Below, in pieces: positions 2,150 to 34,607 of a DNA stretch of 36,289 nt; within the stretch, counting starts at the first letter, position 1, and each line of letters begins with the position of its first letter. The notes under the pieces were generated by a model. That model searched no databases, had not been told where the DNA came from, and saw nothing but the letters and a program-made list of their open reading frames with translations. The position numbers and the translations under genes are program-made. Source of the stretch: Nemertoderma westbladi. Taxonomy: Eukaryota > Animalia > Xenacoelomorpha. The DNA lies in NCBI GenBank assembly GCA_032718475.1, contig JAUCBJ010005070.1, forward strand, positions 1 through 36,289, written 5' to 3'.

Positions 2150-4484
2150 ATACGAACTGAATCTATTATCGACCACATACTTACAAATATTACTTCTTGC
2201 GTATCAACATCCGGAACATTTAAAGTAAAAATCGGTACATCAGACCATCAACCAACCTTCATCTGTCTTCAAAATTATTCCTGCTATTTTAAAAAACCCG
2301 ATCAACATAGTGCATTTGATTTTTCAAAATTTAACACAACTAACTTTCTTCACGATGTCAAACTCACATCCAACTGGTCTTATACAGATAAAAACGTTGA
2401 CAATTTTGAAAAATTTAATGTTTTTTATAAAGATCTCGAGAGAATTTGTCATAAACACGTCCCAACAAAAATTATAACGTCTCAACGAAAAATTCCCGAC
2501 AAGCCATGGATGACAGATTCTCTTATAACTTGTACTCTCCAGAAAAATAAACTATACCGCAATTACTTAAAATCTCCAACTGAAGTTAATCATGACATCT
2601 ATAAAAAATACCGTAACAAATTAACTTCTACCTTGCGTGTCGTGGAAAAAAACTACTATCAAATAAAATTTGAAGAAAATAGAAATAATATTAAAAAAAC
2701 CTGGGTAATTATAAATTCCGCTCTACATAGAAATAAGAAATCAAATATCCCAAATCAATTAACAATAAAAACAGATAATTCTGTAGAAGTTATTACGGAC
2801 CCCACTAAAATTGCCACTATTTTTAATAGTCATTTTGCTACAGTAGGACCAAAATTAGATAAACAAATTCCATTATCAAGTCGTTCACCTCTTCGTAATA
2901 TTTCACGATTCAACCTCCGCCCTAACTCCTTTGTTCTTACAGAGATTTCTCCTGTTGAAATAGAATACTTGATTCTTCAATTGAATCCTAAGTCCGCCAC
3001 TAATGACTCGCTCCCAATTAAACTAATTCAACTTGCAGCTAAGCCTCTCTCTATCCATCTAAACTACATAATTAATCTGTCGATTACTCATGGTTTTTTC
3101 CCTAGCGCCCTTAAAATAGCAAAAATTATTCCTGTTTTTAAATCTGACAATCCAAAAGACCCAAATAATTATCGGCCTATCTCCCTCTTACCAGTGTTAA
3201 GTAAAATTTTTGAGCAATTAATTAACTCACAGCTTCACTCTTACCTTACTAAATATTCAATCCTCTCTACGTGCCAATACGGATTTCGTCCAAAAACCTC
3301 GACATCGCATGCTTTACTCTCAGTTACAGAAAGAATCCATCAAGCCCTTGAAGAAAAAAATTCAACCTGTACCATCTATATAGATCTCAAAAAGGCATTC
3401 GATACCATTAATCATAAAATTTTATTAAACAAGTTAGAATGTTACGGTATCCGAGGATCTCCTTTGGATCTCATATCAAGTTTTCTGACTTCTAGATTTC
3501 AATTTGTCTCCATATCTGGCCACTCATCACCACTACTGCCCTTAACTTGCGGCGTACCTCAGGGAGGTCGTTCTATCACCGTTACTGTTCCTTTTGTACA
3601 TTAACGACTTGCCTAACGCTACTTCTCTTCTAACAACTCTCTTTGCCGACGACACTACTCTCCTTCAATCAGCTAAACATATTAATACTCTAATACATGA
3701 AACTAATAACGAATTAAATAAACTGACTGAATGGTTAGTAGACAATCGCCTTTCATTAAACTTATCTAAAACGGAATTTACTTTATTCACAAATACGGTG
3801 CAAAATACAACAAATATACCTCCACTACAAATTAATTCGAAAAATGTTAATAAATCCATATGCACAAAATTTTTAGGAATTCATGTAGACAACAAACTAT
3901 CCTGGAAGTCACACGTACAATTTATTACTAAAAAAATTTCTAGAACAATTGGCATCTTTTATAAACTTAGGCACTCTTTTCCACTGATTATACTCAGACA
4001 ACTTTATTTTTCACTTATACATCCATATATAAACTATGGTATAATCATATGGGGAAGTACCTATCCCTCTATACTTAAACCTCTACGTACCAAAATAAAT
4101 AAATTTGTCCGCTGCGTAACTTTTTCACACTCTCAATCCTCCTCACTACCTCTATATAAATCTCTATCTATTTTGCCCCTTGAATTATTATATAAACATC
4201 AAGCAGCCCTATTCATGCACGATATCCATTATAGTAATATTATATCTAATACTAGCCATATAGGCAAATTATTCATAAAAACTGCTTCCACCCACAGATA
4301 TTTCACGCGTTCTGTAGCACATGGAAACTATCATGTGCCATCAGTCCGGCTAGACTCCTCGAAACGGTCCCTGAGATATCAAGGTCCCTTGATTTGGAAC
4401 GACATTCCGCTAGCTGCTCGTGAATCAAAAAACAAAAATACTTTTTCGCGTAAATTTAAGGAAATATTGTTTGCCTCTACTTAA
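2150..4484 (+). pseudogene. LINE-B ORF2 reverse transcriptase, single frameshift near 3565
   Basis: Motifs NYRPISLLPVLSKIFE, QYGFR, DLKKAFDTINH, GVPQG / (frameshift) VLSPLLFLLYINDL, FADDT, LSLNLSKT, KFLGIHVD, YGIIIWG. Combines ORFs 2510-3604 and 3594-4484. Confidence 0.93.
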
Positions 4485-7526: not shown

Positions 7527-7815
7527 TCTACCAGCAACAATAAAATGTCATTGCATATGCATATGCCGGAATTCAAAGCCATTAACAATGTACATCAATG
7601 AACAAAATGCACGGTACCGAAAGATAAATGTTCTTGTGAAATTTTGAATTAAAAATGATTTATACCAGTAATGTTTTAATGCTTTTCAATTTTCGTTTTA
7701 TAAGAACGTTTAGCTATTTAAAATAGAAGTAAACAATAATGGCAGAACTGTGTTAGGTATATAATGGTTTTACCTTTCAACAGACAAAACTCAATCCATA
7801 CAGCCAAGCCATACG

Positions 7816-8584
7816 TACGGAGCCCCTAAAGGGACATGGGTTTCCCCCTTTTTTTTCTAAGTCCGGCCCGGAGATACTATCTCAGGCCCGGAGATAAAAT
7901 ACAGAACAGGTTCATAGATGTTATAGCGCTGACACAGCAATCAACAGAAACAAATTGCAGCCAATCAGCTAACTGGGTTAATTCCAGATCAATGGCTGTT
8001 CTACAAGTACAGACATCTTGACCGGGAACATGGAAATTAAGTTTCACATTTCAATTTGTGAGATATTTAATATGGAGACACAAGAGTATTGTTAGCACAG
8101 CACAATACAAAGTAATTACATATCTGGAGGGAGGCATGACCCCGTGCCATTGAATAAAAGCCGACCTACCAACGGGCATTTACTTAATGATAATACCCTT
8201 CTACGGCTACAGAAATGAACTACCAATAATAAGAACATTCCATATTATTTGGAGGCAATGGCTGAATAGCCGCATAAAGTTAAACTGCAACAGAGGTGTA
8301 TGTAAACCGAAACAAATAGGCCACGGTCACTCACAAAGGCCTGAATGAGATGATATGAGTATGACAAGCAGCTTTGAAGTATTGGCTACCCCAGAAACTA
8401 TAGTAACTGTATGAGATGGCAGAGTATCTCCGGGCCTGAGATAGTATCTCCGGGCCGGACTTAGTATCTCCGGGCCTGAGATAGTATCTCCGGGCCGGAC
8501 TTAGTATCTCCGGGCCTGAGATAGTATCTCCGGGCCGGACTTAGAAAAAAAGGGGGAAACCCATGTCCCTTTAGGGGCTCCGTA
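7816..8584. mobile_element. Non-autonomous TIR DNA transposon (IS3EU-like MITE)
   Basis: TIRs of ~80 bp, TACGGAGCCCCTAAAGGGACATGGG...CCCATGTCCCTTTAGGGGCTCCGTA. Direct repeat CATACG on both sides (7810-7815, 8585-8590). AGTATCTCCGGGCC subterminal repeats at ~8422-8540. Confidence 0.85.
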
Positions 8585-8730
8585 CATACGAGTCTATTCA
8601 CTAGTTGACAGTTGATTAATGAGACAGCAGGCAATCAACAAAGAGCGGGATAGCTCATTGGTTAAATGTAAGTAATGATCCTAACCAGGTTAGATCGGAT
8701 GTAACGTGGAGGCAGTTCCTTGAAAGTTCG

Positions 8731-9039: not shown

Positions 9040-11264
9040 CTACTGATTGATTATCTGGCATGCCGTGGTGTACCTCTAACACCAGGAATCGTTATGTTGT
9101 ATGCCAAGTGCATTGATAATTCTATTGTTCAGAATTGGAAATACGAGAAACCTGTATTTAGCAATAATAACAGCCATATGTATCACTGGTTTGGTGGCTT
9201 TATGAAGCGTCATCCTGGTCTGCGAATGCGAAAGGCTGCACGTAAAGATAAGGCCGGTGTGCTATTACAGTCGGTGATATTCGAGATTATTTTGCCATGG
9301 TAAAGGAGATTCTTGTCAAATCAAACATTGCCAAACTCAAACTCTGGATGATGGTTCATTGCAGATCATTAATCCTCAGTGTGTCTCAAATATGGATGAG
9401 ATGGCCATTGATTTGTGTAAGGATGCAAGTAAAGTCGTCATTCCCATCAAGAAGTTGACACGATCAGCTAAGACAAAGGTAGCCAGCAGTGAACATGTTA
9501 GTGTGGCCTGTACAGTGAATGCCGATGGTAGTGATCTTCCTCCCTTTGTTATCTTCCCCGGTGCTTTCTTTGGTGGCAACTACACTCAAGGTGGGCTGCC
9601 AGGTGCAGTTTATGCCAGATCAGAGTCAGGTTTTATGGACAGTGACCTTATGGTTAAGTACTATGTGAAAGTGTTCCGTAAGTATAAGAAAACAAGGAGG
9701 GTGTTGACAATGTTTTATTCTTGGATAGCCTTAACTCTCACCTTTCAATGGCACTTATTGATGAAGCACGGAAAGATAAGTCACATCTAGTGACATTTGT
9801 GCCAAATGCTACCCACATCACTCAACCACTGGATATTGCCATATACCGTAGCTTCAAGGCAGCACTATCCCGTATTGTTAGTATTGGGCAGGCCCCACGA
9901 GGATCCCTTTGGATTGCCAAAACAGACATCCACAGAATACTCCGCATCCCTCTTGATGATTCTCTTACAAAACGGAATATTGCATCAGGATTTCGAGAAG
10001 CAGGAATAATTCCTTATAACCCCAATGCAACTGATAAGACTCAATTAATTTCATCTGGCATTATTAGTAGTAAATGTGTTGACCTGAGACCAGATTATTG
10101 CCATTTTCCTGAGTCAAATGTTTCTACTTCCACTTCCACCCATGATGATTTCAGATCGGTTGGCCCTCAGCAGTCAAACGTTGTTGCTACTTCCACTTCC
10201 ACCCAAGATGACTTCAGATGGGTTGGCCCTCAGCAGTCAAACGTTGTTGCTACTTACTTCCACTTCCACCCATGATGACTTCAGATTGGTTGGCCCTCTG
10301 CAGTCAAACGTTGTTGCTACTTCCACTTCCACCCATGATGACTTCAGATCGGTTGCCCTCAGCAGTCAAACGTTGTTGCTACTTCCACTTCCACCCAAGA
10401 TGACTTCAGATGGGTTGGCCCTCAGCAGTCCAACGTTGTTGCTACTTCCACTTCCACCCATGATGACTACAGCTCAGTTAGCCCCTCAGTAGATGAATAC
10501 CTAGTAGATGAAGAAGACAGTGATAGTATTAGCACTCTACCAAGTGGGAGTGATAGTGGGGATACGGATATATGTGAGCTAGAAATTCTATTGGGCATAG
10601 AGAATCCTCTTAATAGTTTTCAAATGATAACACAACAGGTTGAGTTATCTTCACAATTGCATCAGGAACCTTCAGTGCATCTAACACCACAACTCGGACC
10701 ATCTTCACAATTACATCATGGACCTTCTGTGCATGAACACCCATTGGTTCGCTACAATGTCGTCCCTAGAGAATATGCTGATATATTTACCCCGGCTATT
10801 CATTATGTACCACCAGGTAGAAAGCGACCCCTGAGGGTGAAGACGAAAGCCCGTGTATTAACTTCTGATGAAGTGGTAAGTAATCTCAAAGAGCAAAGAC
10901 AAGAGATAGAAAAGAAGAAGGTTGCTGCTGAACAGAGGAAGAAGAATGCTCAAATCAAGAGAGCACAGAAAGCTGCTGTGGTTGAAACAAAGAGGAAGAG
11001 GAAGCAACATAAGAAATCGTTCCGTGGCAGTATTAAGAAAAAGACCAATGATTTTTGTGATATATCAGTTCTAATGATTCTGATGATGATATATATGATG
11101 TTTGTTATCTCTGTGGAACTAATGGTCTGGATAACAGTGCTGCCTGCACATGGGCTGGATGCAAACATTGTTCTCGCTGGGTCTGTGAGGATTGTGTTCC
11201 AATGACATTTGAAATTGGTGTAGACGACTACATCTGCGATATTTGTACCAGTATTGAAGATTAG
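9040..11264 (+). pseudogene. pogo/Tigger-type (DDE_1, CENP-B-like) transposase with C-terminal PHD finger, frameshifted
   Basis: HTH end (HWFGGFMKRHPGL), then NMDE, HVSVACTVNADG..LPPFVIFPG, SESGFMD, LDSLNSH, PNATHITQPLD. C-terminus is ARVLTS, a K/E-rich helix, then CYLC...WAGCKHCSRWVCEDC...YICDIC with TAG at 11262-11264. Confidence 0.88.
10120..10490 (+). repeat. 63-bp coding tandem repeat (~5.5 copies) inside the transposase
   Basis: Unit encodes TSTSTHDDFRSVGPQQSNVVA; a 4-bp insertion near 10251 and a 1-bp deletion near 10355. Confidence 0.9.
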
Positions 11265-11364: not shown

Positions 11365-11633
11365 AAGTAAGTAAATTTTCTTCGGCCGCTAGGCCAGGGA
11401 TTACGCACAAAGTCTGACGACTTATTTCCAGTGCGGTCCCCCCAGAACTTTACTCCCCAGAGGAAACTCCAGTACTCATTTAGCTACCACTTAAGGATGC
11501 AAGGCAGAGATGCGCCCTGGCTGGTCCCTTTAAAGCATTCGTGCCAAAACGAAAACTGCCCTGGCCCATGTGAGGATCGAACCCACGACCTACGGGAGAT
11601 GTGAATTCAATGCAACCACTACACCAAGGTGGA
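11365..11633 (-). mobile_element. tRNA-derived SINE with a LINE-like 3' stem-loop and (TTAC)n tail
   Basis: Minus strand has A-box TGGTGTAGTGG, B-box GGTTCGATCC, a central CATCCTTAAGTGGTAGCTAAATGAGTAC (Deu/Nin-domain-like, from memory), a stem-loop at 11398-11439 and tail TTTACTTACTT. Confidence 0.8.
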
Positions 11634-12805
11634 ACCTACGATTTAATTGGTTACAAGTAATTGAAGCTGTTAATCTTTTAATTCATTGTTTCTGTTTGTG
11701 CTGATTAGTTAGCCAATATGTTAATCACTTACCGTAACGATAATCTAAACTGTGTTACTATAATCAGTTTAACTGCCTAGTGGTAGGTAGAGCTGTAGAG
11801 TGGTATAACGGTAGGTACAGGAGTTAAGTACATTAGTGCAATAATTAATACATTGTGTTGTAATCATTATATATTATGGCGGAATGGAGCCAATTAATAA
11901 TACAAAAATGATTAATATATGTTTGGGTCGACCATATATTATTCAATTTTTTTTATTAATGAGAACAATTTAGCCATTATGTAGTTAATTATGTATGTAC
12001 CAGTATATTACCTACCAGTATGTTTGTATTTATCAGTTGTAAGTAGTGTTGTACAGTTGTATGGTAAATCTGTAAGGCAAAACCTATATTTCACTTTACT
12101 TCATTGTGTTAATCCTTAATATAATCAATCAGTGCTGTTTACTGGTGCGTTAGTCCATTTCGTAGTTCACTATGGTGTCCTATAATATAGTGTGGATTTT
12201 ACACCCCTCCTAGCTTATTCAAAATATCTCCTAGATGTTCTAGTTATGTATTTGTTGTTTTTGTTAGTTTTTTATATTTTCTATCCATATAAACTGCATT
12301 TAGCATTCAATGAAAGCGCTATCATCCAAAAAATAAAACTTCAAATTTTACAGTTTTTTAGCAGATTTTGTAGTGCTTGTATTTTGTCCTAATCCATTGT
12401 TTTGGGCTATTTTTTTTTTGCCCTGTTTGTATAGTTTTTTTTTTAATTTCCAATGGTGCCCACAATAGGGGGTATCTTAGAGCAAAAATCAACCTAATTT
12501 ACATTTTAAAAGGTCTGTTGAAGAGAAGGTTAAAATGTCCACTTTGGGGTAAAACTGTTTTTTTTACCTTAAAGTGGGCACTTTTTTAAAATTTTAAAAA
12601 AATATATAAAAACTTGAAATAAAATAAATTGTTAAAGATTTATTGAGTAGATTAGATGTCAAAGTTTCATTTAATTATATTTAGTGATAGGCCTCTTAAA
12701 ATTAAAATATAATATATTGCAGTTTTTTAAAAAGTATGGCCACATTAGGGTGTCAACGGTAGCTACTATAGGCCTACCGGTAATAATAACAACATATCCC
12801 CGACT

Positions 12806-13011: not shown

Positions 13012-13104
13012 GTAAGGTTATTGTATTCATAATATTATTATTTTAATTTGATCATTTACTTAAATCCGTCACCGCTTTATTTAAAAATTTCTCCCACCAC
13101 CTTA

Positions 13105-13775: not shown

Positions 13776-15067
13776 TCACACTGAATGTTTATTCTTCTTT
13801 ATTTGAGGTTGCCCATTAGTCTTGATTTCATTGAAAATGTCTTCACCATCATCCGTATCATTGACGATGTCCTCTTCAAAGTCGCCGATATCTTCATACG
13901 CATAGCTTGGTGTTTTATTCACGATGAGATCAATTTTTCGCTTAAGCGTTGTTCTTTCATGGCTTTAGGTGTTTTCATCTTCATCTGAGCGCTCACACCC
14001 CCAATGAGGGTATCAATATCCTTATAATCATTTTTTTTTTCAGCGCCGTTTACCCATTCATTTTCTGCAATCGCGGGCAACCAGATTTTTTTCTCATCCA
14101 TTTTCTTAGCAGTGACTTTTACTGCTTCGTACGTCTTCAGCTGACTAGCGTTGTTCGGCATTTCCACTTTCATTAGTTCCTCGTCCGCTAATTCATCAAT
14201 CGCAGCCTCAACAACTAACTTTTTAATCGGTAGAAACTCACACCCAGACGGAATATCGTGGCCCGCATACTTCTGTAATTGCTTAATTATCTTGACATTT
14301 GTGTTGTTTCGAGGGATGAAAATAACCTTGGTGTCGAAGTTGTGGGACAAATATATCCCATTTTCGTTAACGGTTGATGTGTACCTCATACTAACCTCAT
14401 CGATATTCTCGTTAACATTCTTATCTATGTTAAAGTCGAGCAAACAGAATTCATCCGCTCTGAGATTCAACCCATCGTAATATAGAACACCCTTCCATTG
14501 TCTACCTATATCATCCGCTTCCCAAACGCCGACAAATCGTTGCCCTTCAAAGTCGTAGATATATCCAATGTACCCACAATCTTCGAACTCCATAAAATTA
14601 TCACCGTGAATTTCCTTTTTCTTCGGTTCAATACGGGAAAGAACGACTTTGCCGTAGATGCTTTGTAAGACATCTAGAATTTTTAGGGAGATAAAAATTG
14701 ATGCGCCGTTTTTCCCAATGCGTAAGTACGCATGATTTATTGGCGTTATAAGCAAATTGCCTCTGGTGTATTCCTTGTAATATTCAATGGCTATTTTCTT
14801 ATAATTGAGGAAGTCAAATAGGAATCTTATGTTCTGGTAAGTAAGACTTACCGATTCTTGCACGACGTTGCATCCTTTGGTATCACCCCAATGGTTGAAT
14901 CGAACGTATTTCCCGTTAAATGCTTTTATTTCTATTCCTTCCCCCAAACACTCGAGGCCCCACACACTCTTACCTGTAATCACCGATACGTATGGGGCGG
15001 GCGCACTATCAGTAGAGCTACCGCTTAATGACATCATTTTTGGTTGTGATGGTTTCACAGATTCCAT
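13776..15067 (-). CDS. Putative tandem PC4-like (ssDNA-binding / coactivator fold) protein with an acidic C-terminal tail; probable late frameshift
   Basis: 383-aa ORF with two segments like the PC4 pattern: KAFNGKYVRF...SVSLTYQNIRFL and YDFEGQRFVGVW...DGLNLRADEFCLL. An alternative frame continues ...YEDIGDFEEDIVNDTDDGEDIF...HSV to a stop at 13776. Confidence 0.5.
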
Positions 15068-15654: not shown

Positions 15655-16312
15655 ATGACAATACTGGGGCAGCTTGAGTCTATAGATAAGATCATTTTTT
15701 CAAATATATTATTCATTGTTACCTTTCTTTTCGGAATATTTTTAGGTAAAATACGCCGTAATAAAAAAATGTTTCCAATAATACAAGCTAAAAATAGTTA
15801 CCGCGGTCCTAATTCAATTATTCCAATTAAAATTGAATTGTTAAGCCCCGCAGCTCGGGCGCCTGTATGTGGCTCATATAGTCCCGATGGGATTGATATA
15901 TATAGCGCCGTGAATAGAACAATAGAGCTGCACTCACGAATGTTAATTGAGATGGGTGTTAAAATATATTTACCCGCCAATTATTTTGGAAGAATTACAC
16001 CGACTTTTAGCTTGACAAAAATTGGCATTGATGTTGCAGAATGTGCGGTCGATTCCAATAATTACAAGTTGATCTATATTACCACGCGCGCGTGGTAATA
16101 TAGATCAACTTGTAATTATATTGATTAACAACACATCTAAGGAATACGTTGTAACATCGGGCGATAAAATATGCCAGCTTATATGCCAACAATGTAATGC
16201 GGCAATACTATACGTTTCTAATATTTATTCGGATGATTATTTTGGGCTTTTAGCGACGAATTTAACGCTGTATGGGGAAGAGATTAATTCAGCATTTCAC
16301 CGCACATATTAA
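15655..16312 (+). pseudogene. dUTPase-like protein with N-terminal hydrophobic helix, interrupted by an inverted duplication
   Basis: APVCGSYSPDGIDIYS, LPANYFGRITP, GIDVAECAVDSN..RGNI, LINNTSKEYVVTSGDKICQLI follow trimeric dUTPase motifs I-IV. Motif II RSG reads TFS and motif V is absent. Confidence 0.85.
16058..16119. repeat. Perfect 62-bp palindrome
   Basis: ATAATTACAAGTTGATCTATATTACCACGCG followed directly by CGCGTGGTAATATAGATCAACTTGTAATTAT. Confidence 0.97.
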
Positions 16313-16605: not shown

Positions 16606-19600
16606 ATGATGGAGATTAATTGCGTTTTTTGCGGTTGTACTATACTTAAGAAAAATTATTTATGGCATTTACGCACACATTTCGATGGGTATGTTTGCGA
16701 TAATTGTAATTGCCAAACTACTTCTGAAAGAATAGCAATATTTCACAGTAATAGATGTTGCGGGTTGTCTTGCCCGAATTACACCTACCGTGGTTACGCT
16801 CTATCCTGCCCAACATGCTCTGATGATTTTGAAAACTTTGATTCATATATCGAACATAGTTGCCATCAAAACCATTACAATTCCCGCAAACGCAAACATA
16901 ACCAAAAACAATCAGAACCGATATTTCAATCGAATCTCAACGTTGGTTCGCCTGTAAGCATTACAAACAGCTCAGATACACCCAACGAAGGTTTTCATCT
17001 CAAAAACATGTCACGAATCACGCGTTCAGGAATATACTCATAATGTACCATCTAATGAGATGTATCCGGATGTGCCGAATTATTTAAATTATATGGGGAT
17101 ATATGCTTCGCGCGCTTTTAACACGGCTGCATCGGCTTTTATTGATATGTTTTTTAAAGTGTGTGTGATTGCTTCGGTGATAATGGAACGTGATGATGCT
17201 AATTATACTTTACAAGAAGAATTCCATTTTACTTCGATAGGTACAGATAATTATATTGAAAATAGCTTGGATTTTGAAGAATGGTACTACACAGTCATTT
17301 CCCATATCGGTGAAAAAATATCGCAATTTATTAGGCGGGGTAGTGGTTGGAAACTTGTAACTCTATCGTGCATCAAACTTACTATTGCGTCATACTTGCG
17401 ATCGGTATATCGTTTTGGACATAGTGGTGATGCCAACCAATCAATCCCGACAAAATAAAAAATAAACATTGTATAATAAATGTACCGTGTAATGAAGGTG
17501 AATGTTTTAAGTGGGCGGTCCTGACAGCAAAATTTTCAAAACATATATCGGATGATCACACACTGTGCCATATTTCACTCCAAAGTTCTTATAATCAGTA
17601 TTTAGGGTTTTTTAATTTAAGCGAATTAGATTCTACCCTATCATGGAAACTAAATATTCTAAATTTTGAAAAAAATAATCCAAATTATTTAATAAATTTA
17701 TTGTATTTCGATAGAAGTAGCGAAAAAATGTCCTTTCTACGAGAACCGAGCGCTAAAAAAGCTGAAGGTAAAAGATTGCTAAATTTATTGCTTATTGAAC
17801 GTCAAAATTTAACCTTAACAAATCACATCGTCGGGGTTTCCAACTTAAATAGATTATTTAATGGTCGCGGGGAAGGCAATAGCGACACTCATTGTCTTCG
17901 TTGTGAGCGGTGTATTCGTGGCTTCTACAGTCCAAATGCGTTAAAACGCCATAGATTGTGGTGTTGGCAAGGTGGACGTCAAATAGAGGAGATGCCATCT
18001 AAACTGAATTTACACTTTACTAATTACTATGTGAGTACACCTTTTATAGTATATATGGATTTCGAATTTACGCTTTACTAATTACTATGTGAGTACACCT
18101 TTTATAGTATATATGGATTTCGAAGTGGTACTAGCCCCAACAAATAATGTAAAAAAATATTATATAGCCGAACATCTCCCGTCGGCCGTTTCATATTTGA
18201 TTGTCCCCAATAGCGAATTAATTAACCCACCAAATTATTTTTTGTCTACATTTAGACAAAATATCGATAATAACTCGGTACAGAATTTTATCGATAGTCT
18301 GGTTTTTGATTTATTTAAGTGTTATGAATGGTCTACCTTTAACACACACCACCCCAAACACCTGGATCACACACAATACCAAGCTTATATGCGTAACGCA
18401 AATTGCTTTAATTGTAAATCATTTTTTCGGGAAGATATAAATCCAAGTGTAATGCATCAGAACCATTACAACAGGGCTTTCATTGGTGCGGCATGTATTT
18501 CCTGTAATAAACAATTAAGTGTTAAACGTCACCTATTCCCAGTTGTCTGTCATAATTTTTTTTTATGATTCACATTTAATTTTACAAAAAGGGTTTGCCG
18601 GTAGTAAATATAAAAACTGGAACATTGAAACTATTGCAAAAAATACTGAAAGATATATCTCACTTCGCATAGATATTCCAATGTCAGAAGCACTTAGCGT
18701 GCTTGGTTATGCTATTCCAGAAAAGGACGTAAGAGGGCTCCCAACCAGCAAATCAATAACTATACAGGTTATTGATTCATTCGCGTTTATGGGATTTTCC
18801 CTTTCTGCTTTGGCTGGGTTTTTGACAAAAGATGTATCAGATTTAACAACCGTTATTCCACATACGGTGAAGCAAATGAGAAAATTATATCCAAATGTTA
18901 CCAACGAAATTTTACGTCGTAAGTCAGTTTTTCCTTACGAATATGTCGATTCCTTAAGTAAATTGGGGGATACTAAATTACCGCATCCAAAAGAGTTTTA
19001 CAGCGAATTAACATTATCATCTATTAGCCCTGAAAAAACTAAATCTAAACTAAATTGAATTTACGCTTTACTAATTACTATGTGAGTACACCTTTTATAG
19101 TATATATGGATTTCGAATTTACGCTTTACTAATTACTATATGAGTACACCTTTTATAGTATATATGGATTTCGAAGTGGTTCTAGCCCCAACAAATAATG
19201 TAAAAAAATATTATATAGCCGAACATCTCCCATCGGCCGTTTCATATTTGATTGTCCCCAATAGCGAATTAATTAACCCACCAAATTATTTTTTGTCTAC
19301 ATTTAGACAAAATATCGATAATAACTCGGTACAGAATTTTATCGATAGTCTGGTTTTTGATTTATTTAAGTGTTATGAATGGTCTACCTTTAACACACAC
19401 CACCCCAAACACCTGGATCACACACAATACCAAGCTTATATGCGTACCGCAAATTGCTTTAATTGTAAATCATTTTTTCGGGAAGATATAAATCCAAGTG
19501 TAATGCATTACAACGGGGCTTTCTTTGGCTGGGTTTTTGACAAAAGATGTATCAGATTTAACAACCGTTATTCCGCACACTGTGAAGCAAATGAGAAAAT

Positions 19601-21437
19601 TATATCCAAATGTTACCAACGAAATTTTACGTCGTAAGTCAGTTTTTCCTTACCAATATGTCGATTCCTTAAGTAAATTGGGGGATACTAAATTACCGCA
19701 TCCAAAAGAGTTTTATAGCGAATTAACATTATCATCTATTAGCCCTGAAAAATATACATTTGCTCATCTTTCGTGGGAACAATTTGAATGTGAGACACTT
19801 TTTGATTATTTGGAAGCTTACTTACATCTTGACGTGTTGCTGCTAGCCGATATTTTTGAAAATTTTCGCGCTTATTGTACTAAACATTATTCGCTTGAGA
19901 TCTCGAACTATTACACGATGGCGGGGGTTAGTTGGGATGCGGCTTTGAGATTTTCCAAGTCACATATTTGTCTACTTGCAGACCATGAAATGTATTTAAC
20001 ATTCGAAAATTCCATTAGGGGCGGAGTTTCTTACACCAACCTTCATATGGCAAATGCGAATATACCAGGCACAGAAACATACGACCCTAATAAACCTGAA
20101 GCTCATTTATATAATTTAGATTTCAACAGTTTATATAGCGGTTCATTGTTGGAGAAACTTCCTTATTTTGACTTTGAATGGTTGGATGTTGATAGTGTCG
20201 ATATCATGAGTCTGGAAATTGATGATATATATGGTTATTTTGCTGTTGTAGACCTTGAATACCCAACGACTATTCATGATGCCACAGCGGAGCTTCCATT
20301 TGCACCGGAGCATGTTAAACTCGATAGTAGGTATCTCAGTCCACACATGAAAAGTCTTTGGCGACATTATAATGGTGATAAAATTTTCAATAGTTCAACG
20401 AAAAAATTGATGTTAACCCAATTTGATAAGTATGAGTACGGTGTGCATCTAAAATTATTGCGCTTTTATATTCATCATGGCATGCGCTTGATTAAAGTTC
20501 ATAAACTTATTAGATTTAAGCAAGGTTACATTTTTAAGGACTTTATTGAATATAACACCCAGCAAAGAAAAATAGCAAGCAATGACTTTTATGATAAGTT
20601 TCACAAAGGAACAAATAACGCGCTTTTCGGGAAAAGCATGGAGAATATACGGGACCGTGTCTCATTTCGCTTATGTAATTCAATCGAGAAATGTGACTTA
20701 TTATTATCCAAGCCGAATCACAAAAATTTAATTATGTTCACTGATTCATTATCAGGTCACGTCCTATCTAAAACTGCGGTTTGTTTGCATAAACCTATTT
20801 TTTTAGGCCAAGCTGTATTGGACCTGTCGAAGTTAGATTATTACAGTTTCTTCTACGAGAAATTAATGCCCCTGGAAGCCGAATTAAATTGTAGTATAAA
20901 TTTGTTAGGCGGGGACACGGATTCTTTTTTTTACAGTGTGTTGGTTTATCCCAACACCAATTTTTATCTGCGTTACAATCAAAAAAAGTTTTAGACTGTT
21001 CAAATTATCCTATTACACATCCGCTGTATACAGTAGAACAGAAAGGGAAATATAGATATTTAAAGGATGAAGGGAAGTCTATCCCGTTTGACCATGTTAT
21101 TTTACTTAGACCAAAATGTTATAGCTTTCGTGGGGGGCCAGTTCCAAAACGTGTCACTAAAGGCGTAGGAAAAATGGTTATAAAAAAGAAACTCTCCCAC
21201 GAATCATATTTAAAAGTATATAACGAGGTTAGCGAGCATTACGAATACAGTCAAAGGTTTCAATCTAATTTACATAAAATCTACACCGTTTCACAAAGAA
21301 AAAAATCGCTAACACTGTGGGAAGATAAAAGATACTACACATCGACTAATGAAAGTCTACCTTACGGCCATTATAAATCACATTTGGATCGTAAAGCGCC
21401 TGCCCCTAAGCTTTATATACCGCCCATTATAGAATAG
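16606..21437 (+). pseudogene. pPolB: Protein-primed family B DNA polymerase (Zn fingers, terminal-protein region, vOTU-like, exonuclease with endonuclease VII-like insert, polymerase); fragmented and partly duplicated
   Basis: RRGSGW, NEGECFKWAVL, PFIVYMDFE, HNFF/YDSHLI, DSFAFM, RKSVFPYEY, DVLLLADIFENFR, IRGG, DFNSLY, KGTNNALFGK, GDTDS, KDE, LRPKCYS, KGV, EDKRY, LPYGH. Confidence 0.96.
18000..19751 (+). repeat. Tandem duplication within pPolB (period 1051 bp); second copy internally deleted
   Basis: ~18000-19036 recurs nearly identically from ~19050. Both copies contain the same 58-bp duplication (18006/18064 and 19057/19115). Copy 2 lacks ~18483-18809. Confidence 0.93.
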
Positions 21438-21446
21438 CGGATTGCG

Positions 21447-22011
21447 ATGTCTTTTAGTGTTGTCAACAGTAATATAAGTTTGAGGTTGGTTGATGGGTGC
21501 ATATCATTCGATGTGCTGGCTAAACGAATTCGAAATGGAAAACTCATCTTAAAGCCTTTTCAATATATCACCAAAATTTGCGGATGGACGTGTCTCTTTT
21601 TCCCGAGCGGTAAGGTCACTGTACTCGGTAAATCGCCTAAAATAAAAAAAATTATTAAGTATATATATAAGCATACTGATTATAAACTAACTTTTATTTC
21701 AATCAATAGCCAAACTTATATTATTAACAATCTAGACATAGACTATAGGAAATTAATGAAAACGGTCGGGTTTCATTTTTTAGATAATTATTATAATGCG
21801 GAGGGAGGTGAAATATGAGCCGGAGATATTTAATAATATTCTTGTGCAGTTTTATCGTCGGGGTAAAACTAGTTCTAATATCATAACATTTTGCATTTTT
21901 TACACACGAAATGTTGTGTGTATGGCAAGACCCGGGATATTTCGAGTATTTTTTCCAAAGTTTTTGAATTTTATTGGTAATTTAGATAGTCATTTAGGTA
22001 GAAATATTTAA
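21447..22011 (+). pseudogene. TATA-binding-protein (TBP)-like protein, one frameshift near 21800
   Basis: Repeat 1: VVN...ISFDVLAKRIRNG...KPF...TCLFFPSGKVTVLG. Repeat 2: SIN...IDYRKL...KYEPEIFNNIL...FCIFYTRNVVCM. These match TBP motifs TALIFSSGKMVCTG, YEPELFPGL and LIFVSGKVVLTG. Confidence 0.8.
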
Positions 22012-22431
22012 TTTTTTCATTTCTGGTGCCAGTTTTAGGTTTGTCCGGCGGGATCTCGTTAGGTTTTTAAATAAACGCGGATATTACCATTATTCACATT
22101 ATATATAACGTGTTTTATCGGTAGTCTTAGGTTGTCAAGGGCGTCAATTTCATTTCTGATGTTGGTTTACATTTACATAAATCTAGTCTATCTGTCTATT
22201 TGTCGGTCTTTCTGTCAGTCAGTATGTCAAACTTAATTCATTGTTCGCGTTATATAATGTATTTTATTAATTATCGATGTTAGGTTTTAAAGAGTGCTGG
22301 TTTCTATAATTGCTCGGTTTTATCGCGTGAAAAACCCCACCCGCGCATATACTCGATACTATTTATAACGGTGGCGGTGTTTTATTACTTACTATTATTG
22401 TTCTCATTTATATAAGTTATTAATATATGTA

Positions 22432-22913: not shown

Positions 22914-23624
22914 ATGTCCCGAGAGCCGGCGATATCGCAGGAACCAATCACATCATACAACACCTCTTTCAAGATGGGTTTGGCCATGATTATTGCGGGT
23001 CCAAGTTCTTCCGGAAAAACAGTGCTGGTATCAAAAATTGTTAAAAATAAAAATTTAGTTTTTGATATAACCCCGAAGCGTGTATTATTCTTTTATGATG
23101 CCACCCCACCTGAATTCCCAGGTATAACACATCTATTCAAAGGTTTACCGCAAAAAATTAATTCTATTTTCCGCGAAAACGATCTAATTATTATAGACGA
23201 CTTGTTAAGCGAAAGTAAGAGTGATGAGAGTTTGACAGAAAGCTTCACAAAAACCTGCCATCATACTTCCTGTTTCATTATCTATATAACACAAAATTTT
23301 TTCAGTAAAGGGGCGGAAACACGGACTAGAAGTCTAAATGCCCAATATTGTATTTTCACAAAAAATCCCCGCGACGCAAGTCAAATTAGTTATATAGCAC
23401 GGCAAGTGTAACCAAAAAATAGCAATTTTATTGTTCAAGCATATAGCGACGCCACACAAAAACCATTCACACACCTTCTCTTAGACTTTCATCAAAAAAC
23501 GGATGATAGTATAAGAGTTAGGGGTGATATTTTCAACCCATTAGGGCAAACTGTTTATCAACCCACGAACACGAACTCTAACACACCACACCAAGGCCCT
23601 GAGGCTCAGTCTATACCGCAGTAG
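22914..23624 (+). pseudogene. A32/FtsK-like genome-packaging ATPase, one premature stop at 23409-23411
   Basis: Walker A GPSSSGKT, Walker B IIIDDLL, ITQNFF, RTRSLNAQY, KNPRDASQI. The same frame resumes after TAA with AYSDATQKPFTHLLLDF to TAG at 23624. Confidence 0.92.
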
Positions 23625-24323: not shown

Positions 24324-25415
24324 ATGGGGAGAATCGTAGAAAATTGAACAAACAAACGACTGGGAAGAATATATTACGATGTTTCAAATGCTGCCGGTTT
24401 CGCGAGCGTAACCAAACTAGCGAAAGCCTCTAAAGTTACGAGAAATCGCGCAAAGGAGTGGTTGAGCTCCCAACGAATGTATTCCCTACACGTGCCGGCT
24501 AGGCGCCATTACCCGACATCAAAAATTTTCACGGGCGGCATTGGAGATCTATATCAGGCGGACCTATGCGATATGCAACCCTTTAGGGTGGAGAATAATG
24601 GTTATGGTTACATAATTACTTGTATCGATTGCTTTAGTCACAAGGCGTGGGCACTAGGGTTAAAACGTAAAACCGGTGTCGAAATTAAACGCGCCCTAAC
24701 CACAATATTCGAAGAAAGAAAGCCTAAAACACTGGCGGTTGATCAGGGTACTGAGTTTGTAAATAAATTAGTGAAAGAATTCTTACAGAATAATAATGTT
24801 AATTTTTATACATTAGTTAGCCAATTTAAAGCTAGCATCTGTGAGAGGCTTAACCGCACACTTAAGTCGAAAATGTATAAAGTGTTCACAAGGCGGCAAA
24901 ATAAGAAATGGATCGACATATTACCAAAGCTGGTAATTTCATATAATAATTCAATACATAGAACCATCGGTATGGTGCCAAACTCAGTCAATAAAAATAA
25001 TGAAACTGACTTATTTTTAAAACTATATGGCAGTGTGCGCCATCCCAATAAAAAGAAACGCCGCGAACAGCGTCGAGTTTATTTCAAAGTTGGTGATAAA
25101 GTGCGTCTGAGTTTAACCGCGATGCCATTTTCCAAAGGATATACACCTAACTATACCTGGAAAATTTTCGAAATTTCTAGAATGCAGATGGATCGAGAGC
25201 CGTACCCTATGTACGAAGTTATGGATGTGAATAGGCGTGTTATTAAAGGGACATTTTATCAATATGAAATGAAAAAGGTGAAAGAACCGTTTGAGTTCTT
25301 ACCAATTGAAAAAGTAATCAAGGAAAAAGTAATTAACAAAAAAACAGGAAAAAAACAATACCTGGTAAAATTCGTTGGTTATGCGAAGCACCGGTGGGTT
25401 GATAGGATACAATAA
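24324..25415 (+). CDS. Retroviral-like (rve) integrase with C-terminal chromodomain; in-frame stop at 24345-24347 after the likely ATG
   Basis: IYYD...EWLSSQRMYSLH, QADLCDM, CIDCFS, VDQGTEF, ASICERLNRTLK, YNNSIHRTIGMVP, FKVGDKVR, FSKGYTPNYT, IEKVI...YLVKFVGY...WV. Confidence 0.93.
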
Positions 25416-26284
25416 TGGATCGCTTACATTTGACATTGACTTCTGACGCCAGTCTAGATAAATATCCTAACAACACCCCGAGCAATTTTACAATTGAATT
25501 GTCCAAACCTATCCCCATTACCACGGATTGGGTTGTGGGCCTAAAAGAAATACAATATATATCAACTTATAGGAATATTGAGCAAAGATCCGGAATTAAA
25601 ATTGGTGAATACATGGAAGATGGGGATATACCATTCCACATTGCCCCGTATAATCTTATTGAAATCGATCTTAATCATGGGCTGTATGCTTCCGTTGAGT
25701 CAATTATAAATTATATTACCGTATATTTGAAAAAAAATTCCGTAGCACATCATGGTTTCTCCGATGTTAAGTTTAATTATCACAAGCATACATCGAAAAT
25801 ACATTTGCATTCTATGAAATTTCCAATTCTACGGGGATTTAATAAATATATTTGGCTTATCGTCTTTAAAAAATAACATACTTGGTCTTGGTGCATTTTG
25901 GTCAATACATTACAACCCAGAAGACAACTTACTAAGTTTAGGCTCTAGAAATTCAGACAAAAATGGAATTGAATTTCCTGAACCCTGCGATATAACGAGG
26001 GATAGACATACAATGTTTATATATACAGATATAATTGAATCTTCCCACGTGGGGCATTCTATGGTTCCTCTTTTGCGGATAATTCCGTTAAAATGGCAAC
26101 CATACTCATTTATAAGTCAAGAGTTCGAAAACACTCATTACAAACAGTTAAAAAATCAAAAAATTTGTTAATACAATTAGTATAACGCTTCGCGATCATA
26201 AAGGAAAGCATATAGTGTTTCATGGTGGTAAAACAATTTTAGTTCTAGAACTAAAAAAACAGTCGCAATTACAAAACTGGTATA
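25415..26284 (+). pseudogene. Minor capsid protein (penton-like) 1, frameshifted; 3' end approximate
   Basis: N-terminus LTLTSDASLDKYPNNTPSNFTIEL...WVVGLKEIQY; shifted C-terminus MFIYTDIIESSHVGHSMVPLLRII...ISITLRDHKG...TILVLEL. Start overlaps the integrase stop (TAATG). Confidence 0.85.
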
Positions 26285-27090
26285 ATGATGAACAGTTATT
26301 ATGTTGTACTACCTTCAAACGCGAACCCAATAGAATTTTCACTTAATAATGCTAGCGATTTCCAAACAAATTTACAAATTCCTTTACCTATTGCTAGAGG
26401 GCAATGGTTAGTAGGTTTGACTAGTATAACCTACGTATCTAGTATTCGTCACGATAATAGTAACATTTATATAAAGGCTATAAAAAATAAAAAAATGGAT
26501 ACAAGAGATGTCACTCTCCCAGAAGGGTCGTTCCTGACATTGGAAAGAATCATTGAGTTCTTCAACAAAAGCATTATTAAAGCACAAATTAATATAGTTG
26601 ATAATAGAGCGAGGTCAGGCGATATAACTATTCATTTCAAAGGGAAAGAATGGGAAATATTCGTTAGCAAACGTTTGGGTGGTTACCTAGGATTAATAGA
26701 GCACGATATTGATAAATTAGGTTTCAAGTGCGTAAAAACCGACGTCGGAGATTATAATTTATTAGAATTAATCCGCGGAATAATAAGTACCAGTGCCATA
26801 AACATCCCGACGCAGTCGAGATACTAGACCCTAACATAAATATTCACCTTAATTGTGTTGAATCTCAATTTGTGGACAATAACGAATATCGGCTGTTGCG
26901 AACCATACCATTAGAAGGGGAATACGGCGAAGTCATTACTAGGGAAGTCAAACAGATATACTATAAAAAACTTAAAGTAACATCTAATTTACGCTATATA
27001 CGGGCTAAATTGGTTGGGGATTCGGGTGATCTGTTGCGCTTTCATTATGGAAATTCAATATTGATGCTTCATTTTATACGAATTGACTGA
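26285..27090 (+). pseudogene. Minor capsid protein (penton-like) 2, frameshifted
   Basis: YVVLPSNA...NNASDFQTNL...WLVGLTSITY; C-terminus VESQFVDNNEYRLLRTIP...YYKKL...GDSGDLLRF...LMLHF. Confidence 0.85.
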
Positions 27091-27164: not shown

Positions 27165-27730
27165 ATGGATAAATTTCTAAGTCGCAGCTGCGGGCGTGAT
27201 TATTACCTGATGCTGGAAAACCCAGGAATAATAGTAGATTTCCAATATTATACGCATCATCCGCAGATCGGCCAACACCCCGTTGCAACCATTTATTTTA
27301 AAGAGTTTGCGGCTTATAATACTACCATCAAATCATTAGAAAATGTATGGTTTATTAATGGACCGCCCGCAAAAATTTTAAGTTTAAGCGAATGCGATCG
27401 TCTCACACAACTCGCCAATATTACGCATCATATTAATTTTGACTATGGATTTATGGACCAAAGCGCATTTAAAATGTACATACAGGAATGGTTACAAGAA
27501 AAAAAACGGTTGGGGTTTCAAATATTAATACGTGGAATACCGAAATTATTTATTTTAAAAAATGAATTTAATGTGAATGGAACACTTCTAGAAATGTACG
27601 GCATAAACGAAAAATATGTCGATTATGACACCAAATGCATTTTCCATACCATTCTGATAAAGATTCTTGTTTTAATTACTGTTCTATGAAACTCGCAGTT
27701 GGTTATGGGAAATGGTTGTCATCAAATTAA
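27165..27730 (+). pseudogene. DEDD/RNase H-fold nuclease-like protein with Maelstrom-like E..H..CxxH..C pattern; late frameshift
   Basis: IIVDFQYY...FKEFA...THHINFDYG...ILIRGIPK...CIFH, then in a shifted frame SCFNYCSMKLAVGYGKWL to TAA at 27730. Confidence 0.5.
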
Positions 27731-28387: not shown

Positions 28388-29638
28388 ATGAGTAAATTAG
28401 AATTATCATTATTCTCTAGTAAAACAAATCAGCGAGAATATACAACTTCACATTTTTTGGATATCTACCCGATTTCTACTCTTGACACGAATGCCAGGCA
28501 AATAGAGTTCTTTATACCCCAGTCAAATGTTCTATATACTGATTTAAAGAATTCGAAATTTCACATTAAATATAAAATTACATGGGACGGTAATAGGGCT
28601 AACGACGATACAACCCTCCACCATCTCAATTACCCAGATGGGTCACTGTTTGAGAATTGTACGTTGTACCTAAATGAAAAGCTAGTTGAAACCTCGAATG
28701 GGTTCTACGCCTATAAGTCTACGTTTCAGACATTACTGTTGACAGATGTTAACGAAAAACGCGGTATTTTAAGAGCTGGTGGTTATGAGGATACAGATAA
28801 TAATCTAGGCGGGGTACCTGTCGCTACTGGGAACGACGTTCGTGGGAATTATGTTAAATTCGTTGTGGCCCCAATTTTTTTAGACCTAACAAGTCAGGAC
28901 AAATTACTGCCGCCAGGAATTAACATTCGACTTCGTATAGACCGAGTATCGAATAATTTTTTTTTGAAAGTTGAACCCCCCGCAGGATTGGCAAACCCAA
29001 GAGTTGAAATCATGAATATTAATTTAAAAATAAAACACCACAGGATTGATGCCGGGGTTATGCGCGCGCATTTGTTGGGGTCACAAAAAAATGACTTTAT
29101 TTATAACTTGTTAAAACAAGAAGTGAAAACCTTCACTATTGGTAGCGGACAGTCCAGTTATACAGAATCGAACATAATCCAAGGGAAATTACCTAAGTAT
29201 ATTTTGATTTGAATGCTTACCAACGCCAGCTTCAACGGAGAATTAAGCAGTAATCCGCTACATTTTAACCATTTCGGTTTAAATTATGCCGAACTAAACA
29301 TCGACTCCCTTATTATACACGGGTATCCATATCGCCCTAACTTTCCAGAAAACAATTTTATGTTGGAATTCGAAAGTTTAATGAACGTGTTCAAGAGCTT
29401 GAGCGGCGTATTTTGCTCGCTAACACCAGAACGGTTTCGTACCCAATTTCCTTTGATAGTATTTGATCTTACAGTGGGAGGCAATCGAAGCCATGAGATT
29501 CAACCTAGTATACATACAAGCGGGCATTTGATTCTGAAATTTAGTAATACGCTAGTTAACACTATTAACATTATATTAATGGCAAGCTATGACGCTTTTC
29601 TATCTATTTCGGAAGCCAAGGAAATAATAACCGAATAA
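28388..29638 (+). pseudogene. Major capsid protein (double jelly-roll), one premature TGA at 29210-29212
   Basis: MSKLELSLF, IEFFIP...YTDLKNS, SLFENCTLYLNE, YAYKS, QDKLLPPGINIRLRI, GKLPKYILI*MLTNASFNGELSSNPLHFNHFGL, VFDLT, GHLILKFS. Both ORFs are in one frame. Confidence 0.9.
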
Positions 29639-29737: not shown

Positions 29738-30273
29738 ATGTTGGACTCTATACAATTAGCGAAATTCCCGGTGGGGCCCGAATACATCGGTGTTTACGCA
29801 ATCGACCAATTACACCTAATACACGCAAAAAAAATAAGCATAAACAAAATTATTCATTTATTATTAATAATCAACGTATAGGCCTACCGGGGCAACACTG
29901 GTCTTGCATATGCGTGGTTAACAGAATTGCTTATTATTTAGATTCGTTTGGTAAAGCCCCACCACCGAAAATATCCTATTGGTTGCATAAATATACCCAA
30001 AGGCATACTTGGAATTGTAAAATATTTCAAGCGCCACATTCGACTCAGTGTGGTCTATTTTGTCTGTATTATCTAACCGAGGTGCCGAAAAATCCCGGAG
30101 CAATGAATATATTCACCTCTAATTTGCGGTACAATGATTTATTGTTATTACTGTGGACACTTTCGTTAATAAAATTATTTATTTATTTCGGTTATGGGTA
30201 TATTCAATTGCGGTGTGTGAAAATATTATTAGCATTAATATTAATAATAAATATTTATTTCTTGGGTATATAG
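29738..30273 (+). pseudogene. Adenain-like cysteine maturation protease, frameshift near 29830-29850
   Basis: YIGVYAIDQL / FIINN...PGQHWSC...YYLDSFG...FQAPHSTQCGLFCLYY; catalytic H, D, Q and C are present. Confidence 0.9.
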
Positions 30274-30924: not shown

Positions 30925-31392
30925 ATGGCTGCAGGCGGTGATAAATCAATCTCGGAGATTGCCGCAACTTTATTGTGGGTGAGACGGCGGCAAGAGCTAC
31001 GAAGCGACGCAAACCCGAATCCAGAAGCAGAAGACCCCATCCAACAAGTACCTGTTTCTGGCAGGGTGCCCCAAACTTTCGGCGAGGGGACTCGCGGTGG
31101 TACCATTGAACCCCTTAGAAGGCCTAATACACCAATGGCAACGGCATATAGGCCTATCAATTTTTATCCGACGATTGGTAGGCCTCTTAGGCCTATTGCC
31201 ATGGTATTTCCGAATAGGCGGCCCCGAGGGCGAGGTCGTGGTTTATCGCCGTGGTTCTCCCCGGATCCACCGCAAGAAGGGGTACTCCCTGCGGAGCCAG
31301 GGAGAATTGTTGGTGGGGGAGTCCGCCCGACTTGCGCCTGCCCCCCAAGAGTGATAGGGCAAACGAGAATGCAGCCTCCCACCCAACATTAA
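30925..31392 (+). CDS. Pro/Arg/Gly-rich hypothetical protein near the right end of the Polinton
   Basis: Intact 155-aa ATG ORF forming a GC-rich island between AT-rich flanks, with AATAAA downstream. Confidence 0.5.
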   Translation: MAAGGDKSISEIAATLLWVRRRQELRSDANPNPEAEDPIQQVPVSGRVPQTFGEGTRGGTIEPLRRPNTPMATAYRPINFYPTIGRPLRPIAMVFPNRRPRGRGRGLSPWFSPDPPQEGVLPAEPGRIVGGGVRPTCACPPRVIGQTRMQPPTQH

Positions 31393-31759
31393 TGTAAGTA
31401 ATAATTTAATTTCAACAATTAATATAATAACAATAAATAATTACCAAAATTCAACAATAGTACCCATACGCTAAAGGCTTTGCTCACTCCGCGCTGCGCG
31501 GGTACCCATATTCTAAGGCTTCGTTCGATTCATGGCTCGTCCTATTTTTTCATCAAATCACTGTATAACCGAGTTATTAGCAATTAAAATTTATGTTGGC
31601 GCCGGACGGCGATAAGACAACTCACCGATAGCGCGTATATGCTTTCACACACTTCATGGCTCACCCCTCTGCATATAAGTAGAATAATCATAATAAAATA
31701 ATATTATAAATACTATAACTTTATACTCACTTCACGGCTCGCCCCACAACTAGTGGTTT

Positions 31760-31856
31760 AGTCAAATGTTCTATATACTGATTTAAAGAATTCGAAATTT
31801 CACATTAAATATAAAATTACATGGGACGGTAATAGGGCTAACGACGATACAACCCT
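31760..31856 (+). repeat. 97-bp copy of major-capsid segment 28521-28617
   Basis: AGTCAAATGTTCTATATACTG...GACGATACAACCCT reads identically at both places. Confidence 0.95.
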
Positions 31857-32643
<787 letters not shown>

Positions 32644-33522: not shown

Positions 33523-34607
33523 GTGATATTTGCTGTTTGCCCTAGATGTAAGACAAAGGTTCAAAATAAAAAGAAGAAATGCTGCGGCATTGAAATTGAA
33601 AACGATTGGATAACGTGTCCAATATGTGACACCGACACACTTTGCTCACAGGACATGACCAGCACTAACAGTTGTTGTGATACCGGTAATAAATGCACAG
33701 CTTCTGATAAGCGTGACCTACTGGAAACGGAACAAATAGGCGATAAAATCTTTTACATCCCCAAATTAAATGAAAAGGAAAACGTAGATTTGGTCTCTGT
33801 ATTAAAGATTGATATTGATGATAAGGAAATAAAGATGGGTGGTAAGGCATATAGGGAATATAGGGAATGAGAATATTCGAGACAGATTTTGCATTAAGAT
33901 CCATTGACAATTCGGATGTAATATCACTATCAGTCTGTACAATCTATCCTGAGTTTGAATTTCGCCATCATAGAATGCGAAGGAAGGATATAATATTTCG
34001 CCGATCCATTAGTGAACGACGCCACAACCGCGTTCAAGCTGAAAAGGGAAATCGCAACAAAGGAACTTCAGGTTCAGCGTCAAAGGATTCCGATAAGGAC
34101 GAATCAATGATAGAGTTTGGTGCCGAAGCTCCTAAAGCCAAGAAACCAAGGAAACTGATTCTTTCAAAACCACCAACTAAGGGGACAAAAAAAGAGAAGG
34201 AAATTCATAAAATATCTGTGCCATCATCAAGTTCGGAATCTGATGTGGAAGGTGTAATCTCCATCACCTCTGACGCCGATGTTGTCTCTGATGTTGTTTC
34301 TAATTGTGAGGATCAGGATGTTCGTGATAGTTACCAAGTTGGAGATTGTGTGTGGGCCAAACTTAAAAAACGGGACAAATTTTGGCCTAGTCGAATATGT
34401 GAGCCATATGGAACGCCGAAAAGTTCTAGACCGTACTGGGTGTTCTTTTACGGATCCAACAATTATGGATGGGTTAGCGGAGCCATGGTTTTAAAATATG
34501 ACAGGGGGGCCGATGATTACACTTCACTCGTCAATTCATCTTCGAATAAACTATTTACTAAAGGTGTTGCTGAGTTGGATGAGGAGCTTGGAAAAATCGT
34601 TACATGA
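33523..34607 (+). pseudogene. Intronless Cys-rich plus PWWP-domain protein (two overlapping ORFs, probable frameshift near 33860)
   Basis: N-terminal CPRC...CC...CPIC...CC; C-terminal YQVGDCVWAKL..RDKFWPSRI...YWVFFYGSNNYGWV...LFTKGVAEL is a PWWP domain. Confidence 0.75.

Follow-up and report, generated by a model that had tools for sequence, protein, structure and literature searches.

The window, that is the whole stretch of 36,289 nucleotides that was analysed, contains a decayed Polinton of about 18.7 kb, at approximately 13.0-31.75 kb. The features are listed in Table 1. The marks of a Polinton are present: a protein-primed DNA polymerase B (pPolB), an integrase, an ATPase, a protease and capsid genes, where the capsid labels are based on position and on likeness to a related Polinton locus, L028. 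All of these genes contain stops or frame breaks. Two further labels are our assumptions: the small basic ORF is taken to be the core protein, and the two genes after the integrase are presumably minor capsid genes, given their position and the gene content of other Polintons. No RNA polymerase gene is recognised by Pfam in the element. Polintons are not known to have an RNA polymerase.

Table 1. Features of the decayed Polinton, with positions in the window.
Feature	Position	Strand	Basis
Left inverted-repeat remnant, 54 nt, 80% to 31673-31723	13013..13065		repeat search
382-aa ORF, no recognised family, left arm	13919..15067	-	no Pfam match
dUTPase-like ORF	15655..16098	+	PF00692 E 3.2e-4
Protein-primed DNA polymerase B (pPolB), several frames	16606..21437	+	PF03175 E 4e-15; presumed start at 16606
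TBP-like 5' piece: pseudo-repeat 1, with its FPSGK turn and a basic helix, and the start of pseudo-repeat 2; ends just past the frame break	21447..21818	+	profiles, alignment, secondary-structure order
Frame break of the window copy	21796..21818	+	high-depth sibling contigs differ by an indel, the only one listed for the gene
TBP-like 3' piece, with the YEPExF loop (by homology the stirrup facing TFIIB), Phe 3 and 4 and the final helix	21796..22011	+	hhalign prob 67, E 5e-5; profiles; alignment
AT-rich intergenic region: AATAAA at 22070, a number of TATA-like words, and TATATAAG at 23 nt upstream of the following ATG	22012..22431	+	sequence
Small basic core-type ORF, common to the related Polinton L028	22432..22896	+	phmmer E 8.5e-9
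A32-like packaging ATPase, frame ends early	22914..23411	+	Pox_A32 E 0.002; 14 related loci
Retroviral-type integrase	24348..25415	+	rve E 2e-11; 23 related loci
Two likely minor-capsid genes, two frames each	25415..27090	+	match to L028 ORF, E 7e-9; putative label
Likely major capsid gene, in-frame stop at 29210-29212	28388..29638	+	E 5e-17 and 7e-8 to a 471-aa ORF of L028; putative label
Adenain-type cysteine protease with a break close to its start	29738..30273	+	15 loci; C48 E 0.086, C5 E 0.16
Right inverted-repeat remnant	31673..31723		repeat search

Polintons have terminal inverted repeats of 100-1500 bp and target duplications of 5-8 bp, according to the available part of PMC10748475, while the window element retains a 54-nt remnant at 80% identity. 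Both remnants are AT-rich. The right end of the element runs into a duplicated piece of the capsid gene: a 101-nt copy (99%) of positions 28521-28621 is found at 31760-31860, directly before a CA array of about 800 nt. In the flanks we see a LINE reverse transcriptase, a DDE_1 (pogo-type) remnant and a PWWP-domain ORF (2510-4484, 9094-11205 and 33867-34607), and therefore the host is likely an animal. At 7812-8588 there is also a small MITE-like element; its inverted ends are 85 nt long (98%), and it has subterminal repeats of 20 nt.

In gene content and order the element resembles the Alpha-adintovirus (group 2) Polintons: it has a PF03175 pPolB, an rve integrase, an A32 ATPase, a protease and capsid-type genes, arranged as in L028. 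In the part of PMC8502044 that was available, a PF03175-type PolB corresponds to the Alpha adintovirus class, which is binned with group 2 Polintons. The element differs from such Polintons in its terminal repeats, of which only remnants are left, and in having an extra gene, similar to the TATA-binding protein (TBP), between pPolB and the structural block.

A few other features of the element can be observed. The pPolB gene has 652 relatives, with up to about 42% identity, and many of these carry an endonuclease VII domain (PF02945). It is internally duplicated (17999-18486 and 19050-19528, 488 nt at 96.5%; 18808-19037 and 19523-19752, 230 nt at 97.8%), with a 58-nt tandem repeat within the duplicated region 17999-19752; this is a rearrangement either of the window copy or of the assembly. 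A Cys-rich insert is seen in pPolB at 18113-18568 and 19140-19637, and the frame at 18113 has no Pfam match. Where the dUTPase-like frame ends there is a hairpin without a loop (16041-16136, 48-nt arms, 83% complementary). The ORFs at 27165-27689 and 30925-31392 have no Pfam match, and the former is unmatched across 34 related loci. For the ORF in the left arm, a likeness to PC4 noticed by eye in two stretches was not supported.

The TBP-like gene consists of a 5' ORF of 123 aa and a 3' ORF of 71 aa that overlap in a G/A-rich stretch. Reading through both frames, with an X at the break, gives 187 residues; the coordinates bear out the proposal of an earlier note on this DNA that two ORFs can be joined across one break in a G/A run. 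Between the stop of the last pPolB frame at 21437 and the ATG of the TBP-like gene at 21447 lies a spacer of 9 nt. The stop-to-stop frame of the 5' ORF opens at 21438, so the gene has no N-terminal extension, and both this and the short distance to pPolB agree with the earlier description. The gene is intronless and the 5' piece is basic (18 K+R against 6 D+E). The copy in the window is broken and dead.

How similar is this gene to TBP? The best Pfam family for the read-through is TBP (PF00352), with an E-value of 3.4e-4 and 20.8 bits in two stretches, which is under the cut-off of 22.9 bits, and neither half alone has a Pfam TBP match. We also built profiles, for the whole protein and for single repeats, from 25 TBPs: 12 cellular ones from the protein database and 13 from viral contigs. 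The 13 contig TBPs were chosen by the motif YEPExFPG, a bias that favours the 3' piece, while the Pfam result and the 5' piece are independent of it. With both profiles the two unjoined frames take ranks 1 and 2 among the 333 frames of the window. Shuffled sequences matched the real profile scores of the 5' ORF in 3 and 2 of 2000 cases, and those of the 3' ORF in 0 and 0 of 2000. Among 1588 frames from 34 other Polinton-like loci the best E-value to the TBP profiles was 0.62. Two collinear pseudo-repeats within about 180 aa are present in the Pfam stretches, the profiles, the alignment and the order of strands and helices. Since the two highest-ranked frames are neighbours and follow each other in the right order, a chance match is unlikely. 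Taken together, the sub-cut-off Pfam match and the profile ranks support the view that the gene encodes a divergent TBP homolog, and the observation of such a homolog adjacent to pPolB is confirmed.

Other searches with the protein or its pieces gave less. In the ESM Atlas the top two clusters for the 5' piece carry PF00352 (0.91; 185 and 175 shared features), and 26 of the 30 matches belong to the PF00352 set, matches that are weak given the low recognition value of 1562. A word search of 5.8 billion returned 42 candidate relatives, with 0 at E<=0.01. The 5' piece found no relatives in 1.84 billion sequences with phmmer, and a sequence search of the PDB gave no TBP and one unrelated match (E 0.94). 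Locus scans with the 5' piece returned one T4-like phage and three unrelated bacterial-type genes, all rejected on inspection, and single-protein scans with pPolB and the capsid protein found nothing. The internal repeat of the 5' piece is not significant, as 934 of 2000 shuffles do as well. When modelled, the 5' piece has the expected order of strands and helices at low confidence (pLDDT 36 alone, 53 with 12 TBP rows). Structure searches of the PDB and of viral structures returned no TBP, and none of their matches reached E<=0.001 or Z>=8; rows of T4 MotA are found among the weak matches. At this low model confidence the searches do not decide the fold.

The residues expected at the DNA face were compared with cellular TBP, using yeast numbering from an offset that reproduces the residues tabulated in PMC12529657. 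The protein resembles cellular TBP (PF00352) in its two pseudo-repeats within about 185 aa, in F99, F116, F190 and F207, in N69, in the SGK turn of repeat 1 and in the YEPExF motif. It differs in that the beta2-beta3 region of repeat 1 is shorter and repeat 2 carries an insertion. Among the 16 DNA-facing positions in the available part of that paper, eight are kept (N69, F99, L114, F116, N159, F190, F207 and V213) and eight are changed (V71, A101, V122, T124, V161, P191, L205 and T215). Repeat 2 is also without G210 and G216, which are 100% conserved across the 25 TBPs. The losses of G210, G216 and P191 are common to the sibling copies described below. Given the loss of P191 and the changes on the hydrophobic face, the protein is probably a TBP variant and not a canonical TATA reader.

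The earlier note had listed candidates for all four intercalating Phe and for both Asn. All four Phe align in the window copy: those in LFFPSGK, YEPEIF and CIFYT do so firmly, and the Phe of KPF falls on yeast F99. However, most sibling contigs differ at two positions in the KPF codon, so Phe is not the family state at F99, where the siblings stay aromatic by the listed letters. The claim thus stands for three Phe, and for the fourth in the window copy. For the Asn the picture is more mixed. MAFFT aligns N69 with N7, as had been proposed, and puts N159 on N95 and not on the Asn of SIN (N87); a gapless slide favours neither register. The Asn assignments are positional only, and sequence does not settle the registers of beta1 and beta1'. 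If SIN were N159, both repeats would read N-S-N/Q where TBP has N-x-V, resembling the V161-to-Asn change of the herpesviral protein ORF24. The YEPExF loop is intact and the positions of E186 and E188 are kept; E186 we take to be a TFIIB-contact residue. In the available part of PMC12529657 E188 is named as a TFIIB contact, and P191 is needed by ORF24.

The stretch was found in four public sequencing runs with one organism label, from three samples and three studies, and one of them may be its source. None of the listed public runs containing the stretch is an RNA run. Contigs of mixed identity fall on the element in all four (3468, 4401, 1361 and 158); the runs were found with the window stretch itself, and contig depth does not give copy number. 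In runs X1-X3 the coverage of the TBP bin is level with that of the polymerase and ATPase bins. Over 21420-22040 the only listed indel sits at the break, in all of the listed depth of X2 and X3 and about half of that of X1, and a 332-bp contig with a depth of 3345 spans it. Because most sibling contigs have this indel, the break is specific to the window copy.

Further, two rows of X3 agree in length and depth and adjoin each other in the record, and we take them as a single contig of 711 bp. It spans the end of pPolB, with 63 differences over 419 nt, and the start of the TBP-like gene, with 31 over 174 nt, and neither part contains a gap. A subfamily that is 15-18% apart (about 82% identical) therefore keeps the gene as well as the order pPolB-TBP. 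The TBP-like gene is thus a member of a many-variant element family and is found family-wide. Its region differs from the siblings at 8 of 621 sites, two of them in the KPF Phe codon, while 27-30 are expected from the element average of 4.4-4.8% (Poisson P about 1e-5 or lower). This is a hint of constraint; the low divergence could also come from a mosaic copy rather than from selection.

In other Polintons the gene is not seen. We gathered 34 Polinton-like loci, many of them partial, with a pPolB alignment, and neither Pfam (0 of 174 ORFs) nor our own profiles (0 of 34 loci) detect a TBP in them. The 174 ORFs comprise 173 out of 205 candidates with a length of 110-290 aa and one further ORF; presumed ATPase, integrase, protease and minor capsid genes and duplicates were set aside. 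A family search over 6 of the 34 loci matched none. In L028 the genes follow the same order and none lies between pPolB and the ATPase, which indicates that such elements work without a TBP. TBP is thus not a core gene of Polintons, as the earlier note had held. In L028, which by gene order is the closest Polinton, an ORF at 11373-11885 (-) has a weak match to PC4 (E 0.0034).

What could a Polinton use a TBP for? The most likely reading, to which we would give about an even chance, is that the divergent TBP serves the element as its own promoter-recognition factor for host Pol II. The protein would be made early, together with pPolB, and would bind an AT-rich box through the minor groove and bend it, its base preference being altered. 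The acidic loop would recruit host TFIIB, and hence Pol II. The targets might be the downstream packaging and capsid genes, giving an early-to-late switch, which is the step with the least support. The promoter-factor reading is suggested by TBP homology in both halves, membership of the family, the fixed gene order, the retained YEPExF and the changed DNA face. It is weakened by the sub-cut-off Pfam score, the unsettled registers of beta1 and beta1', the loss of G210, G216 and P191, L028 managing without a TBP, and the lack of a late-gene box.

This last point comes from an unbiased k-mer search before 10 structural or late gene starts, with three windows and three word lengths. No common motif was found beyond chance: in all nine settings, 72-197 of 200 random sets performed as well as the real one. 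The claim that the protein steers Pol II to the capsid block is thus left without support from the gene starts, and the overall interpretation of the earlier note is partly supported. However, one decayed copy with uncertain starts provides little power, so the result weakens the promoter-factor reading and does not refute it. Before the 14 gene starts, YATAAACR, TATAAGA and TATTWAA are found in no case, and TAAGA and TATATAAG in one case each. The word TATA(A)CG, picked afterwards, lies 10-120 nt before 5 of the 10 late starts and 0 of the 4 others (background 0.08). Its nominal P of about 5e-4, a hand estimate, is within the range of the best chance motifs, so as an element box it is a lead only.

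The missing late box would also fit a protein that helps replication or integration by bending DNA, binding the AT-rich ends of the element and helping to load pPolB or the integrase. Host factors bend the adenovirus origin in a comparable way. The tight linkage to pPolB, with the 9-nt spacer and its retention in the divergent subfamily, and the AT-rich repeat remnants agree with such a helper, which we nevertheless consider unlikely: the best-kept motif is the TFIIB-side YEPExF loop, which a pure bender does not need.

That loop could instead be kept by a decoy that no longer starts transcription. Such a protein would sequester TFIIB or further partners of TBP, or sit on the TATA boxes of the host, and thereby dampen host expression or defence. 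Half of the DNA-facing positions and both repeat-2 glycines are changed and no target box was found, as would be expected for a decoy. However, the three firm Phe and the aromatic fourth position argue for DNA contact, and we regard a decoy, too, as rather improbable.

There is also a small chance that the resemblance to TBP is distant or in part accidental, and that the gene encodes an alpha/beta protein of other function with two short TBP-like motifs. The Pfam score below the cut-off, the halves unrecognised on their own and the three protein searches without relatives would be consistent with this, while two neighbouring frames that independently top 333, in the right order and with the right spacing, and the absence of TBP matches among the 174 other ORFs, speak against it. 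Finally, a retrocopy of host TBP or TRF, inserted into a single element and since decayed, which the intronless, extension-free and broken window copy might suggest, is very improbable and largely refuted: the pieces share 20-22% and 24-31% of their residues with cellular TBPs, so no recent retrocopy is involved (cellular cores are 72-98% identical among themselves, in a set without TRF2/TBPL1), the gene is present family-wide and in a divergent subfamily, and its base composition is like that of the other element genes.

Returning to the promoter-factor reading, one close known parallel is the herpesviral vTBP (ORF24/UL87/BcRF1; beta/gamma). KSHV ORF24 is, in the available part of PMC12529657, a 752-aa multidomain protein with a Pol II-binding N-terminal domain beside its TBP domain; it belongs to a six-protein complex, has hydrophobic-to-polar changes on the DNA face and reads a non-canonical box, TATTWAA. 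The two proteins have in common that they are virus-encoded, that Phe are kept and the DNA face has turned polar, and, if our reading is right, that host Pol II is used. In contrast, the element protein is a bare core of about 187 aa without a large N-terminal domain, and it keeps the acidic loop and lacks P191, while ORF24 is without the acidic TFIIB residues and keeps P191. At the TFIIB side this is the opposite of the herpesviral solution.

In its fullest form, the proposal is a lineage of animal Polintons with a one-protein early-to-late switch, in which a minimal, re-tuned TBP, made with the polymerase, reads a family-private TATA variant and so directs TFIIB and Pol II of the host to the genes for capsid and packaging. 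We offer this tentatively, and think it somewhat doubtful as a whole. If true, these elements would have, independently and on a much smaller scale, an equivalent of the late complex of herpesviruses with its six proteins, and there would be direct genetic evidence that they go through a regulated cycle producing virions. A conserved, family-wide TBP variant is a testable handle on how Polintons time their capsid genes, with a small protein, one intergenic block and TBP-less sister elements as natural controls. The variant also serves as a natural experiment on one of the most conserved proteins, with the DNA face rebuilt and the TFIIB loop kept.

A TBP in a Polinton-like genome is not entirely without precedent. 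The label "TBP" appears in the legend of Fig 5 of Starrett 2021 (PMC8502044), for MELD viruses with an adintovirus-like PolB. The novelty implied by the earlier note was for this reason somewhat too high. It is a label only, in the section on non-animal datasets as far as that text was available, and the shared point is a TBP-like gene in a Polinton-like genome; the covered part of the supplement contains no match for TBP. A Polinton TBP is absent from the available parts of PMC10748475, PMC12220804, 10.64898/2026.10.13.758929 and PMC10675990, the last of which describes TBP in mirusvirus-like elements. No other precedent in Polintons, Mavericks or adintoviruses was found in the literature covered, which is without most subscription papers and the Repbase reports.

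According to the available part of PMC10132985, mirusviruses have a TBP and encode their own RNA polymerase. The TBPs of mirusviruses and giant viruses (contigs L042, L046, L055 and L063) are likewise virus-encoded, in large genomes as opposed to an integrating element of about 19 kb. A profile of four large-virus sequences is the best one for the 3' ORF (14.0 bits versus 4.0 and 5.6), a difference too weak to indicate descent. The TBP of the element is real and is a variant among the virus-encoded TBPs, not a separate type of system, with a putative role as promoter factor. On L055 (4326-6398) a TBP gene and the capsid-like gene are arranged tail-to-tail. Its repeat 2 and that of the window protein carry an insertion in the same loop, and these two insertions are probably convergent.
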